Positions 14,935 to 32,000 of a DNA stretch of 32,000 nt are shown here, in pieces. A program made the translations under genes and the position numbers. The first letter of the stretch is position 1, and each line of letters begins with the position of its first letter. The notes below the pieces were generated by a model, which had not been told where the DNA came from, did no database searches, and saw only the letters and a program-made list of their open reading frames with translations. The DNA is from Amycolatopsis sp. NPDC057786 (GTDB lineage Bacteria > Actinomycetota > Actinomycetes > Mycobacteriales > Pseudonocardiaceae): assembly GCF_042797905.1 (NCBI RefSeq), contig NZ_JBHVKW010000012.1, positions 50,374 to 82,373 on the forward strand. Reading direction: 5' to 3'.

Positions 14935-15591
14935 ATGTCACAGCAACTGTGGTCCGAAGTGGACGACTACTTGTCCGGGGTGCTCATCCCGTCCGATCCC
15001 GCCCTCGAAGGCGCGCGTGAGGCGTCGGATCGGGCCGGGCTGCCGTCGATCGCCGTCGCGCCGAATCAGGGAAAGCTGCTCAACCTGCTGGCGAGGATGA
15101 TCGGCGCCCGTTCCATCCTGGAGATCGGCACGCTCGGCGGGTACAGCACGATCTGGCTCGCCCGTGCCCTGCCGCCGCAAGGCAGGCTGGTCACCCTCGA
15201 ATTCGACCCGAAGCACGCCGAGGTCGCGCGTGGCAACATCGAAGCGGCCGGGCTCGGCGAGCTGGTCGACGTCCGCGTCGGCAAGGCACTGGACCTGCTG
15301 CCGTCGGTCGAGGGCCCGATCGATCTGGCGTTCATCGACGCCGACAAGGTCAACAACCCGGCCTATTTCGAAGCGTCGCTGAAGCTCGTCCGGCCCGGCG
15401 GCGTGATCGTGGTCGACAACGTCGTCCGCGGTGGCGCGGTGACCGACGCCGCCAGCGAAGACCCGAACGTCCAGGGGATCAGGCGGCTGCACGAGATGAT
15501 CGCCGCCGAACCCCGCGTCGACGCGACGGCGATCCAGACGGTCGGAAGCAAGGGCTACGACGGACTCACCGTCGTGCTCGTGAAGCCCTGA
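14935..15591 (+). CDS. Class I SAM-dependent, cation-dependent O-methyltransferase (caffeoyl-CoA/catechol OMT family)
   Basis: ILEIGTLGGYS is the SAM-binding motif I. FIDADK and VVDNVV are the metal-binding Asp/Asp/Asn positions of the family. RBS GGAGG lies 5 nt upstream of the ATG, and the gene starts 32 nt after the ABC ATPase stop. Confidence 0.85.
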   Translation: MSQQLWSEVDDYLSGVLIPSDPALEGAREASDRAGLPSIAVAPNQGKLLNLLARMIGARSILEIGTLGGYSTIWLARALPPQGRLVTLEFDPKHAEVARGNIEAAGLGELVDVRVGKALDLLPSVEGPIDLAFIDADKVNNPAYFEASLKLVRPGGVIVVDNVVRGGAVTDAASEDPNVQGIRRLHEMIAAEPRVDATAIQTVGSKGYDGLTVVLVKP

Positions 15592-15598
15592 CGACTCC

Positions 15599-15712
15599 CG
15601 CGTGATCAGACGCAGACCTCACGTGATTGAAGGCGTAACTCGGGTGTGCGGTCTCCAATCACGCGAGTTACGTCCCTGATCACGCGAGTTACGCCTTCAA
15701 TCACGCGGGGAT
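15599..15712. repeat. Palindromic array of 21-bp phased tandem repeats (locus A)
   Basis: The octamer ATCACGCG occurs at 15658, 15679 and 15700, exactly 21 bp apart. Its complement CGYGTGAT occurs at 15599 and 15620, also 21 bp apart. Segment 15621-15642 (acgtgattgaaggcgtaactcg) is the near-perfect reverse complement of 15685-15706. The array sits between the OMT stop and the PBP stop. Confidence 0.8.
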
Positions 15713-23750: not shown

Positions 23751-26582
<2,832 letters not shown>

Positions 26583-26624
26583 GGGAGCTCCTTGGGTCAG
26601 GCGCCGGATAGACCGGTGCGCTGG

Positions 26625-26818
26625 GAACTCCCCCTCTGTCATGGCACCTGAGAGTTTCACCACCCGTGAACGGGGTGGCTTTCACCTTGGGTGAGACGCA
26701 CTTGCGCGCCTGCTTTCCAGAGTGGCCTCGCGTGAAGCGGTAGTGGGTACCTGAGAGATTCCGGGGAGTTTGCTCCTTCGGTGCCCCACCACGTTCGTGG
26801 GGGCTCTCCCGCTCCAGC
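26625..26818 (-). promoter_or_regulatory. Tandem (two-aptamer) glycine riboswitch in the gcvP leader
   Basis: On the minus strand, aptamer 1 reads GGGAGAG...CACCGAAGGAGCAA...CTCTCAGG. Aptamer 2 reads CTCTGGAAAG...CACCCAAGGTGAAA...CTCTCAGG..ACAGAGG. Both carry the conserved glycine-aptamer cores. A hairpin gcgc(a)ccgg-tctat-ccggcgc lies between aptamer 2 and the RBS. Confidence 0.9.
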
Positions 26819-26891
26819 TCGACGGCCCTGTCTGAAGTTGTGCGCATACCGTACCTGGCGTGTTCAACGCGCGTCTACTTCCAGCCGAGCA

Positions 26892-27019
26892 CGTCACTTG
26901 CGTGTCCAGAGCCGTCACTCACGTGCTTCAAGTCGTGACTCGCGTGATCGGAGACGGAACTCTTGAGTTACGCCTCCGATCACGCGAGTGACGGCCCCGA
27001 TCACGCGAGTTACGCGTTC
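26892..27019. repeat. Palindromic array of 21-bp phased tandem repeats (locus B), same family as 15599-15712
   Basis: Complement-orientation cores lie at 26899 (tgcgtgtc), 26920 (cacgtgct) and 26941 (cgcgtgat), 21 bp apart. Forward ATCACGCG lies at 26979 and 27000, also 21 bp apart. 26934-26953 pairs with 26974-26993 (20 bp, 1 mismatch). The unit 26999-27019 (gatcacgcgagttacgcgttc) is 20 of 21 identical to 15678-15698. Confidence 0.8.
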
Positions 27020-27384
27020 TCCATCATCATCTCGGCGGTGATGGTGCCGCAGAGCTCGGCGCACCGCATCATCATGTCGGCGGCGTCGGCGAGCTCGGCG
27101 TCACCGGTCCTGGCGCACTCGTCGGCGCACATGCGCATCATCTGGGAGGCGAGGCCGCACATCTTCGCGCACATGCGCATCATCTCGAGGTCGGCGACCA
27201 TGGCGGAGCAGCGCATCATCATGTCGGCGGACATGCGGGACATGTCCGCGCAGGTCACCATCATCATCCCGAGCTTCGCGCCGCCCAGCTCCATGCAGCG
27301 CGTCATCATCTCCTCGCACCGGACGTGGCACTCGTTGCACAGATCGATGCAGTCACGCATGGCGGTGCTCATCTGCCGGGTCAT
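27010..27384 (-). CDS. Met/Cys-rich four-helix-bundle protein, DUF326/Csp3-like putative cytosolic metal (copper) storage protein
   Basis: The 124-aa product has strongly G/C-ending codons on the minus strand, so the + ORF 26963..27697 is its shadow. RBS GGGAGG lies 8 nt upstream. The CxxxCxxCxxxC pattern (C-IDL-C-NE-C-HVR-C) and four helix-length blocks resemble YhjQ/Ccsp/Csp3. There is no signal peptide. Confidence 0.7.
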   Translation of the reverse strand: MTRQMSTAMRDCIDLCNECHVRCEEMMTRCMELGGAKLGMMMVTCADMSRMSADMMMRCSAMVADLEMMRMCAKMCGLASQMMRMCADECARTGDAELADAADMMMRCAELCGTITAEMMMENA

Positions 27385-27592
27385 TCTTCGGGCCTCCCGC
27401 GCTGTTCGGATCGCGGGACCGGGCGATCCCGCGTCTCAGGACTACAGCGCAGGTCAGCGGCCCGCCATCCCAGCCACCGGGACGAGTGACGGGGGGCTGG
27501 CCACGCGAGGCGAAAGGGCCCTTCACCGCACGAGACGCGGGGAAAGCGTCCTTCGGCTCCCGGACCGAGCGCGACGGCCGGGCCGGCCCGAG

Positions 27593-27645
27593 TACATGAA
27601 GGCCCCCTTCCTGTACCTAGGCGCAAGGAAGGGGGCCATCATGTA
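27593..27645 (-). terminator. Strong hairpin downstream of the gamma-glutamyl operon; probable intrinsic terminator without a U-tract
   Basis: tacatgaaGGCCCCCTTCCT (27593-27612) pairs with AGGAAGGGGGCCatcatgta (27626-27645). The core stem is 12 bp perfect and extends to 20 bp with one mismatch. The loop is 13 nt. Confidence 0.65.
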
Positions 27646-27650
27646 CTTCA

Positions 27651-27674
27651 GCGCATTTAGAGGACTGAACGCGC
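27651..27674. repeat. Single-arm copy of the GTCCTCT-loop hairpin family
   Basis: The plus strand reads gcgcatttAGAGGACtgaacgcgc. On the minus-strand mRNA this is gcgcgttcaGUCCUCUaaaugcgc, beginning 4 nt after the SDR stop codon (27679-27681). Confidence 0.6.
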
Positions 27675-27678
27675 GGGG

Positions 27679-28446
27679 TCAGAGCGGGGTGACGTAGGCG
27701 CCCGAGATCCCGCCGTCCACCAGGAACTGCGAAGCCGTGATGAACGAGGCGTCGTCGCTCGCCAGGAACGCGACGGCCGCCGCGATCTCCTCCGGCTCCG
27801 CGAACCGCCCGACCGGCACGTGCACCAGCCGCCGCGCCGCCCGCTCGGGGTCCTTCGCGAACAGTTCCTTCAGCAGCGGCGTGTTCACCGGTCCCGGGCA
27901 CAGCGCGTTCACCCGGATGTTCTCCCGCGCGAACTGCACGCCCAGCTCCCGGCTCATCGCCAGCACCCCGCCCTTGGACGCGGTGTAGGAGATCTGCGAC
28001 GTCGCGGCGCCCATCACCGCGACGAACGACGCCGTGTTGATGATCGAGCCCTTGCCCTGCCGCTGCATATGCGGCAGTACCGCCTTGCAGCACAGGTACA
28101 CCGACGTCAGGTTGACCTTCTGCACCTTCTCCCACGCGTCGATGCCCGTGGTGAGGATCGAGTCGTCCTCTGGCGGGGAGATACCCGCGTTGTTGAACGC
28201 GACGTCGACCGAGCCGAAAGTGTCCACAGTGGTCTGGAACAGGGCCTCGACCTGCTCGGCGTCGGTGACGTCGGCCTGCACGAACAGACCGCCGACCTCG
28301 TCGGCCGCGGCTTTGCCCGCGTCGGCGGAGATGTCGCCGATGACGACCTTCGCGCCCTCGCTCGCCAGCCGCCGCGCGGTGGCGAGACCGATGCCGCTGC
28401 TCCCGCCGGTGATGACCGCGACGCGGCCTTCGAAACGCTGAACCAT
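27679..28446 (-). CDS. Short-chain dehydrogenase/reductase (FabG-like); by context a candidate gamma-glutamyl-amino-alcohol dehydrogenase
   Basis: Carries ITGGSSGIG, NNAG and YTASK. Its ATG directly follows the TAA of the aldehyde dehydrogenase gene (TAAATG). Confidence 0.8.
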   Translation of the reverse strand: MVQRFEGRVAVITGGSSGIGLATARRLASEGAKVVIGDISADAGKAAADEVGGLFVQADVTDAEQVEALFQTTVDTFGSVDVAFNNAGISPPEDDSILTTGIDAWEKVQKVNLTSVYLCCKAVLPHMQRQGKGSIINTASFVAVMGAATSQISYTASKGGVLAMSRELGVQFARENIRVNALCPGPVNTPLLKELFAKDPERAARRLVHVPVGRFAEPEEIAAAVAFLASDDASFITASQFLVDGGISGAYVTPL

Positions 28447-29811
28447 TTAACCCTCCGTGCTGATGAAGACATTCTTGGTCTCGGTGAAGGCGTCGACGGC
28501 GTCCGGGCCGAGTTCCCGGCCCAGCCCGGACTGCTTGAACCCACCGAACGGCGTCCAATACCGGACGGACGAATGCGAGTTGACCGACAGGTTCCCCGCT
28601 TCGACGCCGCGCGCGACGCGGAAGGCGCGGCCGACGTCGCGGGTCCAGATCGAGCCGGACAGCCCGTACTCGGTGTGGTTGGCCATGGTCACCGCGTCCG
28701 CCTCGCCGTCGAACGGGACCACGGCGACGACCGGGCCGAAGATCTCGTCCGACGCCAGCGGATGTCGCAGGTCCGGCGGGGTGACGACGGTCGGCGCGAA
28801 CCAGTATCCGGGACCGACGGGCGCGTTGCCCCGGAAGGCGACCGGCGCAGCGTCGTCCACATAGGACGACACCTTCGCGTGGTGCCCCGCCGAGATCAGC
28901 GGCCCCATCTCGGTCACTTCCAGCCGCGGATCCCCCACGACGACACCGTTCACCGCGGGTTCCAGCAGCTCCATGAACTTTTCGTACACGCTCGACTGCA
29001 CCAGGATCAGCGACCGCGCGCAGCAGTCCTGCCCGGCGTTGTCGAAGACGCCGTACGGCGCGGTGGCCGCGGCCTTGTCCAGGTCGGCGTCGGCGAACAC
29101 GATGTTCGCGTTCTTGCCGCCGAGTTCCAGCGTCACCCGCTTCACCTGCGCGGCGCAGCCCGCCATGATCTGCTTGCCGACCTCGGTCGAGCCGGTGAAC
29201 ACCACCTTCCGCACCGCCGGGTGGTCCACGAAACGCTGCCCCACCACCGTTCCCTTGCCGGGAAGCACCTGGAAGACGTCTTCGGGGATCCCCGACTCAC
29301 GAGCGAGTTCGCCGAGCCGGATCGCGGTCAGCGGGGTGAGTTCGGCGGGTTTGAGCACGACGGTGTTCCCGGCGGCGAGCGCGGGCGCGAACCCCCAGCC
29401 CGCGATGGGCATCGGGAAGTTCCACGGCACGATCACCCCGACCACGCCGAGCGGCTCGTGGAACGTCATGTTCACGCCGCCGGGCACGGGGATCTGCTTG
29501 CCGCTCAGCCGTTCGGGCGAAGCCGAGTAGTACGTCAGCACGTCGCGGACGTTGCCCGCTTCCCAGCGCGCGTTGCCGATCGTGTGGCCGGCGTTGGCGA
29601 CCTCCAGCTGGGCGAGGTTCTCGATGTCGGCGTCGACGGCGTCGGCGAACCGGCGCAGCAGCCGCGCCCGGTCGCCCGGAGCCACCGCGCGCCACGCGGG
29701 GAACGCCGCGTGCGCGCGGGCGATCGCCGCGTCGGTCTCCTCGGCCGAGGTCAGCTCGACCGACCTCACCACCTCTTCGGTGGCGGGGTTGATCACCTCG
29801 AACGTGGTCAT
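28447..29811 (-). CDS. NAD(P)-dependent aldehyde dehydrogenase
   Basis: Begins MTTFEVINPATEE. Also carries VPWNFP, ELGGKN (catalytic Glu), FDNAGQDCCARS (catalytic Cys) and EIFGPV. Its ATG overlaps the upstream TGA (ATGA). The upstream 120 codons of the listed ORF are junk. Confidence 0.88.
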   Translation of the reverse strand: MTTFEVINPATEEVVRSVELTSAEETDAAIARAHAAFPAWRAVAPGDRARLLRRFADAVDADIENLAQLEVANAGHTIGNARWEAGNVRDVLTYYSASPERLSGKQIPVPGGVNMTFHEPLGVVGVIVPWNFPMPIAGWGFAPALAAGNTVVLKPAELTPLTAIRLGELARESGIPEDVFQVLPGKGTVVGQRFVDHPAVRKVVFTGSTEVGKQIMAGCAAQVKRVTLELGGKNANIVFADADLDKAAATAPYGVFDNAGQDCCARSLILVQSSVYEKFMELLEPAVNGVVVGDPRLEVTEMGPLISAGHHAKVSSYVDDAAPVAFRGNAPVGPGYWFAPTVVTPPDLRHPLASDEIFGPVVAVVPFDGEADAVTMANHTEYGLSGSIWTRDVGRAFRVARGVEAGNLSVNSHSSVRYWTPFGGFKQSGLGRELGPDAVDAFTETKNVFISTEG

Positions 29812-30521
29812 GGGTGCTCCTTCGCAGCTTTCACCAGCGCCTCGAAAAGCCTGATGTCGTCGGGATTCTGTTCGGGATGCCATTGGACGCCGATGGCGAA
29901 CCCGTCGCCGGGCAGTTCGGCCGCCTCGATGGTCCCGTCGGCGGCCCAGCCGACCGGGACCAGCCCGTCGCCGAGCTTGTCGATCGCCTGATGGTGGTAG
30001 CACGGCACCTTGGTCTCGGCGCCGAGGATCGACGCGACACGGCTGCCCTCGGCAAGGCTCACCGTAGTGGTGCCGAAGGTCCCCGGCGCGGGCTGGTGAT
30101 CCGCACTGTCCAAAGTGTCCGGCAGATGCTGCGCGAGCGTGCCGCCCAGCGCGACGCTGAGCACCTGCAGCCCCCGGCACACACCGAGCACCGGCTTACG
30201 GGCGGACAAGGCGGACCGCAGCAGGCCGAACTCGAAGGCGTCCCGGTTCGGCCTCGTGTACGTCGTCGCGTGCTGCTCCTGGCCGTAGCGCGCCGGGTCG
30301 ACGTCGGCGCCACCGACCAGCACGAGCCCGTCCACGGCGGAGATCAGCCGATCGTGTGCTCCGCTCACCGGCGGCAGCAGGACCGGGACGCCGCCCGCCG
30401 CGACGATCCCGTCGACGTAGACCCGGTGCAGCAGCGCGGCTTCGGTCTCCCAGACGAGGAACTTCGCCGGCTCCAGATAGGAGGTGAGCCCGATCAGGGG
30501 CTCAGAGACGTTCGAAGCCAC
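29808..30521 (-). CDS. Gamma-glutamyl-amide hydrolase, PuuD-like (peptidase C26 / class I glutamine amidotransferase fold)
   Basis: Carries PLIGLTSY, GVCRGLQ (nucleophilic Cys) and GVQWHPE (His/Glu of the triad). The GTG start overlaps the end of the synthetase gene by 20 nt. Confidence 0.8.
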   Translation of the reverse strand: MASNVSEPLIGLTSYLEPAKFLVWETEAALLHRVYVDGIVAAGGVPVLLPPVSGAHDRLISAVDGLVLVGGADVDPARYGQEQHATTYTRPNRDAFEFGLLRSALSARKPVLGVCRGLQVLSVALGGTLAQHLPDTLDSADHQPAPGTFGTTTVSLAEGSRVASILGAETKVPCYHHQAIDKLGDGLVPVGWAADGTIEAAELPGDGFAIGVQWHPEQNPDDIRLFEALVKAAKEHP

Positions 30522-31866
30522 GAATCCTCTCCCAGTCGGTGACGGCGGCGTCGTACGCGGTCAGTTCGACCTTCGCCGCGTTCAGGTAGTGGTCGACGAC
30601 CTCGTCCCCGAACGCCGCCCTCGCGAGCTCGCTCTTGTCCAGCAGCGCCGAGGCTTCCCGCAGAGTCGTCGGCACGGTCGGCTTGCCGGAACCGTAGGCG
30701 TTGCCCTGGAACTCCGGTTCGAGTTCCAGTTCGTTCTCGATGCCGTGCAGTCCGGCCGCGATCAGCGCGGCCACCGCGAGGTACGGGTTCACGTCGCCGC
30801 CCGGGACGCGGTTCTCGGTGCGCAGCGAGTCTCCGTGCCCGACGACGCGGAGCGCGCACGTGCGGTTGTCGGTGCCCCACGCGACGGCCGTCGGCGCGAA
30901 GCTTCCGGGGACGAAACGCTTGTAGGAGTTGATGTTCGGTGCGAAGAAGTAGGTCAGCTCACGCAGCCCGGCGAGCTGGCCGGCGAGGAAGTGCTCCATC
31001 AGCGGCGAAAACCCGCCGGGCCCGTCACCCGCCAGGACGGGCTCGCCCTCGGCGGAGCACAGACTGATGTGGATGTGACAGGAGTTGCCCTCGCGTTCGT
31101 TGTACTTCGCCATGAACGTGAGGCTCTTGCCCTCCTGCGCGGCGATCTCCTTGGAGCCGGTCTTGTAGACGCTGTGGTTGTCGCAGGTGGTCAGCGCGTC
31201 GGCGTAGCGGAACGCGATCTCGTGCTGGCCGGGGTTGCACTCGCCCTTGGCGGACTCGACGTACAGGCCCGCTCCGCCCATCTCGTTGCGGATACGGCGC
31301 AGCAGCGGCTCGATCCGCGCGGTGCCGAGCATCGAGTAGTCGACGTTGTACTGGTTGGCCGGGCGCAGGTCCTGGTACCGCTTGTCCCAGGCCGACTCGA
31401 AGGTGTCGTCGAAGACGATGAACTCCAGTTCGGTCCCGACGTACGCGGTGAGACCACGGGCGGCGAGCCGGTCGAGCTGGCCGCGCAGGATCTGGCGGGG
31501 CGACGGGGCCACGGCGCCGCCTTCCACCCGTTCGAGGTCGGCGAGGACGAGCGCGGTGCCCTCCTGCCACGGAAGCAGGCGCAGCGTGCCGAAGTCGGGG
31601 CGCATGACGAAGTCGCCGTAGCCGGTCTCCCAGGACGACATCGCGTAGCCGTCGACGGTGTTCATGTCCACGTCGACCGCGAGCAGGTAGTTGCACGCTT
31701 CGGTGGCGTGTTCGACGACCTCGTTGAGGAAGTACTCGGCGGCGCAGCGCTTGCCCTGCAGCCTGCCCTGCATGTCGGTGATCGCCACCAGCACCGTGTC
31801 CACGGTGCCGTCCTCGACCAGTTCCCGGAGCCGATCCAGCGTGAGCATGCCGCGCCTGTTCGCCAT
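30502..31866 (-). CDS. Glutamine-synthetase-like gamma-glutamyl-amine synthetase (GlnA3/GlnA4/PuuA type)
   Basis: GS catalytic-domain motifs are present: GTELEFIVF, ESAKGECNPGQHEI, NSCHIHISL, NINSYKRF and RTENRVPG. The N-terminus MANRRGMLTLDRLRELVEDGTVDTVLVAITDMQGRLQGKR matches the GS-like beta-grasp domain. The ATG at 31866 is preceded by GGTGAGG. Amine specificity cannot be read from the sequence. Confidence 0.82.
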   Translation of the reverse strand: MANRRGMLTLDRLRELVEDGTVDTVLVAITDMQGRLQGKRCAAEYFLNEVVEHATEACNYLLAVDVDMNTVDGYAMSSWETGYGDFVMRPDFGTLRLLPWQEGTALVLADLERVEGGAVAPSPRQILRGQLDRLAARGLTAYVGTELEFIVFDDTFESAWDKRYQDLRPANQYNVDYSMLGTARIEPLLRRIRNEMGGAGLYVESAKGECNPGQHEIAFRYADALTTCDNHSVYKTGSKEIAAQEGKSLTFMAKYNEREGNSCHIHISLCSAEGEPVLAGDGPGGFSPLMEHFLAGQLAGLRELTYFFAPNINSYKRFVPGSFAPTAVAWGTDNRTCALRVVGHGDSLRTENRVPGGDVNPYLAVAALIAAGLHGIENELELEPEFQGNAYGSGKPTVPTTLREASALLDKSELARAAFGDEVVDHYLNAAKVELTAYDAAVTDWERIRGFERL

Positions 31867-32000
31867 CAGCCTCACCTAAAGGTTCGAAGCGGTACCTTTG
31901 CGGCTTCTTCCTACCGGGTCGGCCCGACACGGTCAACTCGACCAATGGTCTGGTTCGTTACCCATTGCACACCGTAGTTGATCCCTGGGCGGATTGTCTG

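Follow-up and report, generated by a model that had tools for sequence, protein, structure and literature searches.

Csp3 proteins are, to our knowledge, the only high-capacity cytosolic copper stores known in bacteria, and the structural features that set their Cu(I) affinity and their very slow uptake and release of the metal are a question of Csp3 research. The stretch of DNA analysed here (the window: 32,000 nucleotides of Amycolatopsis sp. NPDC057786, contig NZ_JBHVKW010000012.1, positions 50,374 to 82,373) carries on its minus strand a gene of 124 codons whose product is flooded with methionine, and which an earlier sequence-only reading, made by a model without database searches, had taken for a Met-rich variant of the Cys-lined Csp3 bundle.

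The solved Csp3s are homotetramers that bind about 17-20 Cu(I) per monomer with an affinity of about 1e17 M-1 (PMC10155185). Classical members of the superfamily, MtCsp3, BsCsp3 (YhjQ) and SlCsp3/Ccsp, are cytosolic proteins with a Cys-lined core; they have 18-19 Cys, four of them at the bundle's mouth, together with a mouth HxxxHxH motif and 5-6 mouth Cu sites (PMC10155185). RkCsp3 of Methylocystis sp. Rockwell (6ZIF) and NmCsp3 of Nitrosospira multiformis (3LMF) have been set apart as a "new subgroup" (PMC10155185), with 16 Cys in three tetranuclear Cu(I) clusters. Methionines already serve as Cu(I) ligands in RkCsp3 (Met46, Met60, Met91 and possibly Met108): Met91 forms two mouth Cu sites with His37, His42 and Cys30, Met60 and Met108 help to form an extra site at the closed end, and Met46, a flexible residue at the interface of core and mouth, gates the core and has been linked to faster Cu(I) exchange (PMC10155185). 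The mouth of MtCsp1, a Tat-exported protein, is mainly Met (Met40, Met43, Met48), with few His (PMC5171941).

RkCsp3 and NmCsp3 are the best sequence matches to the window protein. All three are cytosolic four-helix bundles with Cys on heptad positions a and d and without the His motif of the α3-loop-α4 region; the window protein differs in having 13 Cys rather than 16, a shorter α1-α2 loop, a nine-residue insertion, and 22.6% Met where the other two have about 6%.

A translated gene for a sulfur-rich cytosolic protein

The product, MTRQMSTAMRDCIDLCNECHVRCEEMMTRCMELGGAKLGMMMVTCADMSRMSADMMMRCSAMVADLEMMRMCAKMCGLASQMMRMCADECARTGDAELADAADMMMRCAELCGTITAEMMMENA, has 28 Met (22.6%), 13 Cys (10.5%) and a single His (H20), and contains no Phe, Trp, Tyr or Pro; one third of its residues contain sulfur. 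The 15 other proteins of the window average 1.97% Met and 0.74% Cys, against which the product is enriched about 11-fold and about 14-fold respectively (binomial P = 1e-21 for Met and 1e-11 for Cys). Third-position GC (GC3) of the open reading frame (ORF) is 0.97 in a window of 69% GC, pairwise dN/dS against orthologues is 0.12-0.19 (dS 0.2-0.5), and the frame is intact, at exactly 124 aa, in at least 17 Amycolatopsis genomes. The gene is thus translated and subject to purifying selection, which maintains a composition rich in AUG against the mutational bias of the genome. A longer frame on the opposite strand (Table 1), for which there is no supporting evidence, was set aside as the usual high-GC shadow frame.

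By inspection, the N-terminus (MTRQMSTAMRD; MTRQMSTAMRDCIDL) has neither a twin-arginine (Tat) motif nor a hydrophobic h-region; the product is cytosolic, unlike Csp1 and Csp2. The sequence-only reading was thus right about the lack of a signal peptide, as it was, to the residue, about the numbers of Met and Cys; its N-terminal CxxxCxxCxxxC is present at C12, C16, C19 and C23, and the ribosome-binding site (RBS) that it gave the gene can be read ahead of the ATG.

The Csp3 fold is recovered by profiles and by structure prediction

Searches with the product alone did not place it in any family. A Pfam scan gave no family above threshold, PF03860 (DUF326/Csp) being unmatched even at E≤10, and an NCBIfam scan gave none at all, TIGR04401 (the Csp1 family) included; the relatives, too, stay below threshold with TIGR04401, at 17-29 bits for a cut-off of 100. 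Against PDB sequences, single-sequence phmmer returned 3LMF only, marginally, at E 0.049. The single-sequence DUF326 search that had been proposed as a check therefore found no match, homology becoming visible only with profiles. A first homologue search gave four relatives, including one from Amycolatopsis, with identities of 46-95%. A profile of five clade sequences then matched NmCsp3 (E 2.9e-10), RkCsp3 (E 3.8e-9) and BsCsp3 (E 1e-4) among PDB sequences, similarity to the classical Csp3s being marginal (E 1e-4 to 0.3). The best PF03860 match among the five closest clade members is at E 0.042, and Cys-richer members reach the cut-off of 20.4 bits (A. anabasis 23.5, S. spinosa 20.4). An exhaustive HMMER scan collected 291 relatives at E<1e-3, and a second, indexed search with a broader alignment collected 811 proteins; PF03860 is present in all 120 of the matches listed, some of which are named "four-helix bundle copper-binding protein". 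Aligned by HHalign with 40 typical members, the clade (12 sequences) gave 99.3% probability and E 2.4e-20 over 112 columns.

An AlphaFold2 (AF2) model of the product, built on an alignment of 124 sequences in which typical Csp3 homologues dominate, has a pLDDT of 92.6 and a pTM of 0.86. The 22 best Foldseek matches in the PDB are all of Csp3 type, NmCsp3, BsCsp3, SlCsp3/Ccsp, MtCsp3 and PA2107 among them, the best having target-normalised TM scores of 0.85-0.87 at 1.9-2.0 Å; NmCsp3 is the best structural match (TM 0.85), and the fold compares with BsCsp3 and SlCsp3 at TM 0.76-0.87. Family and fold assignment is sound because profile-level searches and AF2/Foldseek agree, rather than through any single-sequence hidden Markov model: the product is predicted to be a cytosolic four-helix bundle of the Csp3/DUF326 superfamily. 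Its clade is sister to the RkCsp3/NmCsp3 subgroup and extends across the Pseudonocardiaceae. The bundle proposed from the letters alone is thus borne out by the clade profile, HHalign, AF2 and Foldseek, and the structure prediction suggested at the time yields a helical bundle that superposes on Csp3 crystal structures.

The Cys lining is shifted and the His of the mouth are gone

To compare ligands column by column, the RkCsp3 and NmCsp3 sequences were added to the alignment and 118 typical members of the closest subgroup were tabulated; heptad register was taken from the alignment and from DSSP helices of the AF2 model, not from its coordinates. The typical members have 16 near-invariant Cys columns, four conserved Met columns (positions 9, 56, 98 and 115 of the window protein, the last three corresponding to RkCsp3 Met60, Met91 and Met108), and conserved His columns at product positions 20, 29, 37 and 63 and in the α1-α2 loop (RkCsp3 His42). 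Eleven of the 16 canonical Cys are kept by the product. The other five are replaced, RkCsp3 Cys53 by S49, Cys74 by A79, Cys78 by M83, Cys94 by A101 and Cys98 by M105, and two Cys, C59 and C72, stand in non-canonical columns. All 13 lie on a or d positions of the heptad (P = 5e-9).

Met is kept at M9, at M56 (RkCsp3 Met60) and at M42 (RkCsp3 Met46), the last giving the product the subgroup's Met at the position equivalent to MtCsp3 Asn58. The Met91 column, 94% Met in the typical members, holds L98, and the Met108 column I115. All His of the mouth are lost: columns that are 66-97% His in the typical members have R29 (for the subgroup's His29 of the conserved α1-loop-α2 region) and K37, and the α1-α2 loop is 3-4 residues shorter, RkCsp3 His37 and His42 corresponding to K37 and to L38 or a deleted loop residue. 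No His occurs in loop 91-97 (ARTGDAE), the HxxxHxH motif between α3 and α4 is absent, and a single mouth Cys remains, C30, matching Cys30 of RkCsp3; none of the three marks of the classical Csp3s, their 18-19 Cys, their mouth HxxxHxH and their 5-6 mouth sites, is found in the product.

The insertion, ADLEMMRMC, falls in columns that are 100% gaps in the 118 typical members and is present in all members of the clade. Helix 3 begins at residue 66 in the AF2 model, and the insertion is predicted to extend this helix at the bundle's closed end.

Methionine has replaced the hydrophobic scaffold

The recurrent MMxRC and MMRMC strings are a single heptad motif, with Met at g and a, Arg or Met at c and Cys at d. 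Seven of the 25 helical Met stand on a and seven on g, with four each on b and c and one each on d, e and f: they are concentrated on a and g, and nine are on the outward b, c and f positions.

As to their origin, four of the 28 are Met of the family, 12 replace Leu, Ile, Val, Phe or Ala, three replace Thr, two Arg and two Cys, and five lie within the insertion or a C-terminal extension. Relative to typical members, Leu+Ile+Val+Phe has fallen from 14.7% to 9.7%, His from 5.4% to 0.8% and Cys from 13.2% to 10.5%. On these two comparisons, the flood of Met is mainly a replacement of the hydrophobic scaffold accompanied by loss of His ligands, not a conversion of core Cys to Met. The contrary claim of the sequence-only reading, that many core Cys had become Met, is overstated, as 11 of the 16 canonical Cys are kept and only two of the five lost became Met. 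At a and d positions the ratio of Met to Cys sulfur is 8:13, against about 4:16 in the typical subgroup.

At 37-47% identity to the product, relatives retain 46-68% of its Met and 69-77% of its Cys, and 29-39% of its other residues; the higher retention of Met than of other residues argues that the Met residues themselves are under selection. At 75-95% identity, 25-27 of the 28 are retained.

The two 19-nt repeats reported in the gene are indeed exact, and encode MMRMCA (residues 68-73 and 82-87) and ADMMMRC (53-59 and 102-108); the recent internal duplication read into them is unsupported, since short shared peptides with biased codons account for them. There is no codon choice for Met, and this ORF writes Cys, Glu and Gln with one codon apiece, so that the chance of identical codons given the shared peptide is about 0.2. 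Where a synonymous alternative first arises the copies differ (CGC/CGG, GCG/GCC), similarity beyond the shared peptide is at background level (7 of 14 residues), and the motifs also occur in homologues just 45% identical. The repeats reflect the heptad pattern; an ancient two-heptad duplication behind the insertion (ADLEMMRMC against LASQMMRMC) is a possible but weak proposal.

An insertion-bearing clade and a Met-rich sister group

Clustering of 251 full-length relatives separated a typical cluster (n=182; Met 5.7%, 16 Cys, 6 His), a Met-rich cluster (n=40; median Met 16.8%, up to 28.7%; 16 Cys, 2 His) and the insertion-bearing clade (n=14; median Met 18.3%, 13 Cys, 1 His), so that the homologue survey suggested at the outset did reveal a Met-rich subclass, in two parts. 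The Met-rich cluster takes in an 87-member cluster from many Streptomyces species together with Microtetraspora and S. halobius proteins, all annotated "four-helix bundle copper-binding protein". Its proteins (for example those of Streptomyces rameus, S. cellulosae and S. albogriseolus, WP_163089500-type, of Microtetraspora and of S. halobius) resemble the product in their high Met, in the loss of His, in a nearly identical helix-2 motif (EMTRMCADMMMRRS against DMSRMSADMMMRCS), in their actinobacterial hosts and in being encoded by stand-alone genes without copper partners; they differ in keeping 16 Cys, in lacking the insertion and in passing the PF03860 cut-off.

When GTDB species genomes were scanned, 36 proved to carry a member of the insertion-bearing clade. 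Members from the Amycolatopsis orientalis group are 91-97% identical to the product, so that the window belongs to that group; further members come from A. xylanica (75%), A. anabasis (57%), Pseudonocardiaceae metagenome-assembled genomes (MAGs) and 12 Saccharopolyspora genomes (44-52%). Clade members have 26-34 Met (21-28%) and 13-17 Cys, with 16-17 Cys outside the A. orientalis group, where canonical Cys 86, 101 and 105 are replaced and positions 52, 59 and 72 have gained a Cys. The lining of thiolates has thus moved towards the extended closed end rather than being reduced, and total core sulfur appears to be conserved. The sub-branch of the window has lost further Cys, at positions 49, 79 and 83 and, variably, 52. 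Residue 52, a core d position, is a Ser/Cys polymorphism among 91-97%-identical Amycolatopsis orthologues (loci L010-L029), which accordingly have 13 or 14 Cys: this ligand position toggles between closely related species.

A group of metagenomic proteins (P0106 and P0309-P0314) goes further, with 25-29% Met and 16-18 Cys in 101-121 aa; in proteins of the P0106 type about 40-45% of residues contain sulfur and Leu/Ile/Val/Phe make up 3.4%, and P0106 has no Pfam match.

The locus

On the minus strand the gene follows a glutamine-synthetase-like gene and genes for a class-I amidotransferase (Peptidase_C26), an aldehyde dehydrogenase and a short-chain dehydrogenase/reductase (SDR), from which a hairpin separates it, and is itself followed by a long hairpin, a glycine riboswitch and gcvP-gcvT-gcvH-glyA (Table 1). 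This order is conserved in Amycolatopsis and not in Saccharopolyspora, Streptomyces or the metagenomic relatives. The four upstream genes, syntenic in Amycolatopsis relatives, resemble a gamma-glutamylation (puu-like) cluster for amine catabolism; beyond glyA come a radical-SAM/lipoyl-synthase-like gene and a serine dehydratase gene.

Table 1. Coordinates, within the window, of the Met-rich gene and of the features around it
Feature	Position	Strand	Details
Met/Cys-rich Csp3-like coding sequence	27010..27384	-	ATG to TAA, 124 aa; stop codon 27010-27012
Clade-specific 9-residue insertion ADLEMMRMC	27169..27195	-	codons 64-72; helix 2/helix 3 junction; carries Cys72
Codon of residue 52	27229-27231	-	Ser/Cys polymorphism
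RBS GGGAGG	27393-27398	-	8 nt 5' of ATG; GGAGG motif kept in orthologous loci
Leader inverted repeat GGATCGC/GCGATCC	27408-27429	-	7-bp; between promoter-like block and RBS
Promoter-like block	27439..27482	-	inverted repeat TCCCGG-TGG-CTGGGA 27468-27482; -35-like TGGCGG 27462-27467, 17-nt spacer, -10-like TAGTCC 27439-27444
Conserved block region	27439-27492		TetR gene ends inside it in one MAG
Hairpin past upstream SDR gene	27591..27647	-	22-nt arms, 95% complementary; putative terminator
SDR gene	27679-28446	-
Four-gene set, glutamine-synthetase-like to SDR	27679-31875	-	puu-like
Very stable RNA hairpin	26900..27012	-	begins at stop codon; minimum free energy -70 kcal/mol, z = -9.45 vs shuffles
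Dispersed intergenic repeat GATCACGCGAGT(T/G)AC	26887-27019; 15590-15712		first occurrence overlaps ORF stop codon
Glycine riboswitch aptamer RF00504	26728-26821	-	56.5 bits; upstream of gcvP; one aptamer reported by Rfam
gcvP	23751-26663	-
Antisense frame (rejected)	26963..27697	+	high-GC shadow frame

The hairpin past the SDR gene points to separate transcription of the Met-rich gene. Ahead of its RBS lies a promoter-like block that Amycolatopsis loci share with unchanged spacing, even where identity of the protein is down to 57%, in contrast to the diverging flanks; a scan for consensus sigma-70 promoters gave no match within the block, which is putatively the gene's own promoter together with a possible regulator site. 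A SigR-like reading of this region (GGGAT-N18-GCT) was too mismatched and was dropped. In one MAG (L001/L025) a TetR gene ends inside the conserved block region, only its last 12 codons being alignable to the window; this gene has either been lost in the window lineage or inserted in that MAG. S. spinosa and S. hattusasensis have, ahead of the orthologue, a TetR gene unrelated to this one. A shared TetR regulator was rejected, the neighbouring TetR genes being found in just two lineages and their two proteins being unrelated. The short inverted repeat of the leader is partial in L001 and absent from L005, the locus of a 95%-identical orthologue, and so is probably not functional.

The long hairpin at the stop codon is built of direct and inverted copies of GATCACGCGAGT(T/G)AC and is kept downstream of orthologues; it probably acts as a terminator or insulator between the Met-rich gene and the riboswitch/gcvP unit. 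The same repeat occurs elsewhere in the window and may be a REP-like element or a terminator family.

Ten ORFs from the window's other half, scanned with Pfam, included no copper-homeostasis gene, and there is none among the called genes of the orthologous loci, to which the genes nearer the ORF correspond in position and length; the gene does stand without copper partners in the ORFs and loci so scanned, as had been noted from the letters. A regular-expression search for CsoR-like ACCC-N-GGGT palindromes upstream of the gene, in the window and 36 related loci, found none at a consistent position.

Discussion

From the solved relatives we infer metal binding, coordination by Met, the oligomeric state and the physiological role of the product, and we favour, with moderate confidence, a Csp3-type bundle that sequesters Cu(I) in the cytosol and whose lining has been remodelled. 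Cu(I) would be held inside the bundle on Cys thiolates, as in those relatives, all 13 Cys facing inward on a and d positions and eleven of them in canonical columns. The insertion would lengthen the normally hydrophobic closed end and bring two new core Cys (C59, C72) there amid Met, the thiolate-lined cavity then lying nearer to this end and farther from helix 4's mouth half (L98, A101, M105). With the His of the RkCsp3 mouth gone, the entrance would be lined by C30 and by M26, M27, M31 and M40-42, much as the Met-lined, His-poor mouth of MtCsp1, from which the product differs in having neither a Tat signal peptide nor a TIGR04401 match. Met stands in for most of the aliphatic and aromatic packing, which would make nearly every buried side chain other than Cys a potential thioether donor. 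Met side chains are unbranched, flexible and good donors to Cu(I); this flexibility and the behaviour of RkCsp3 Met46 suggest that a Met-packed bundle would be more malleable and exchange metal differently. A malleable interior of mixed thiolates and thioethers should change how fast Cu(I) enters and leaves, and perhaps also capacity, tolerance of oxidation or selectivity for soft metals.

Several observations weigh against such a store. Five canonical Cys, both His ligands of the mouth and the equivalents of Met91 and Met108 are lost, and for this reason the three tetranuclear clusters of the solved Csp3s cannot form unchanged. The positions of the Cys drift within the clade, one group (P0006) being without C12 and C19. 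In none of the contexts examined is the gene close to a copper-related gene or to a known Cu-sensor operator. The enrichment of Met at inward-facing positions is marginal (P = 0.07), nine of the 25 helical Met pointing outward, and burial is read from heptad register and alignment, not from model coordinates. Finally, the product itself is below every Pfam cut-off and matches no NCBIfam model.

The ligand changes might instead mean that the same fold carries another cargo, the lining having been re-tuned for Ag(I), Hg(II), Cd(II), Zn(II) or a non-metal sulfur-philic ligand. The ligand set is far from that of every solved Csp, in its 8:13 ratio of Met to Cys sulfur at a and d positions and in the loss of His throughout the Met-rich clusters, and DUF326 proteins are reported among the cadmium-binding proteins of Enterobacter cloacae (PMC6727835). 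Cys and Met are, however, the classic ligand set for Cu(I), affinities for Cu(I) of about 1e17-1e18 M-1 are found in all of the nearest relatives that have been characterised (PMC10155185), and arsenic, mercury and cadmium resistance genes are absent from the neighbourhood; we give a cargo other than copper an outside chance.

The outward Met raise a different possibility, that the protein has drifted from metal storage to become a redox buffer, a cytosolic sink for oxidants such as H2O2, HOCl and peroxynitrite whose roughly 28 Met and 13 Cys are recycled by methionine sulfoxide reductases and the mycothiol/thioredoxin system. Surface Met residues can serve as sacrificial antioxidants, and here four of the nine on b, c and f positions (M51, M71, M85 and M120) are invariant down to 46% identity, in a protein with sulfur in a third of its residues, with its Cys, His and Met91/Met108 ligands eroded and with no copper genes around it. 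What makes a redox buffer unlikely is the placement of the Cys: all 13 are on the core a/d stripe, and beyond the A. orientalis group new core positions bring the Cys of clade members back to 16-17, both of which point to selection on an internal thiolate lining rather than on exposed sulfur. The gene's immediate neighbourhood also showed no signature of msrA/msrB, of trx or of SigR type.

The further losses in the window's own sub-branch could also be those of a decaying paralogue, the A. orientalis-group copy being a relaxed remnant with 13 Cys in place of 16-17: C79, C83, C101 and C49 are missing specifically here, residue 52 is polymorphic among close orthologues, and the product has fallen below Pfam detection. 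Such decay is very unlikely in view of the low dN/dS, the frame kept intact at 124 aa in at least 17 Amycolatopsis genomes, the conservation of RBS, promoter-like block and terminator, and the near-complete retention of Met at 75-95% identity. Scarcely credible, lastly, is a regulatory ORF, in which translation of the Met-rich frame would sense methionine or one-carbon supply and influence the glycine riboswitch-gcvPTH-glyA operon: the gene does lie directly upstream of riboswitch and gcvP in Amycolatopsis, even in A. anabasis with its 57%-identical protein, yet the -70 kcal/mol hairpin stands between the two units, the riboswitch has its own control, purifying selection acts on the amino acids of the product, a well-folded and conserved bundle, and the neighbours are unrelated in Saccharopolyspora, Streptomyces and the metagenomic relatives.

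Much in this protein is already known: the fold, the family, the probable ligand chemistry, Met ligands in the cores and mouths of Csps, and annotated Met-rich relatives. Clustered MxM, MM and MxxM ligands, tolerant of oxidation and independent of pH, are also familiar from periplasmic Met-rich Cu(I)/Ag(I) proteins (CusF, PcoE/SilE, CopM and the 'Mets' motifs of Ctr1); these are not homologous to the product, belong to other folds and compartments and have no Cys-lined core. The sequence-only reading, which knew of no description of a mixed thioether/thiolate core, overstated the point in view of the Met ligands of RkCsp3 (PMC10155185) and the Met mouth of MtCsp1 (PMC5171941). In the searchable literature we found no description of Met-rich Csp3s, either of the insertion-bearing clade or of the Streptomyces-type sister group, one apparent match proving to concern DUF3267 and to be irrelevant; the Met-rich, His-free actinobacterial branch, especially the insertion-bearing Pseudonocardiaceae clade with its shifted thiolate core, thus appears to be undescribed there.

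More tentatively, and in our view doubtfully as yet, these Met-rich, His-free actinobacterial relatives, the insertion-bearing Pseudonocardiaceae clade and the Streptomyces/Microtetraspora sister clade together, could form a functionally distinct class of cytosolic soft-metal store, with an interior made up nearly wholly of sulfur, about 13-17 thiolates and at least 16 inward thioethers, in which many Met coordinate metal directly. If so, such stores might show properties unknown among the characterised Csps: they might take a higher or rearranged load of Cu(I), exchange it fast through an all-Met mouth, resist thiol oxidation, or prefer Ag(I) or other soft metals.

The Amycolatopsis members with fewer Cys, deposited as "hypothetical protein", are not picked up by current Pfam and NCBIfam models. 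The window protein is a natural extreme of the family, with about 23% Met in a regular g-a heptad stripe, no His at the mouth and a thiolate core that is shifted and extended, and it belongs to a clade that spans at least two genera under clear purifying selection. That clade would offer a ready-made test of what happens to capacity, kinetics, redox robustness and metal selectivity when thioethers replace thiolates and imidazoles.

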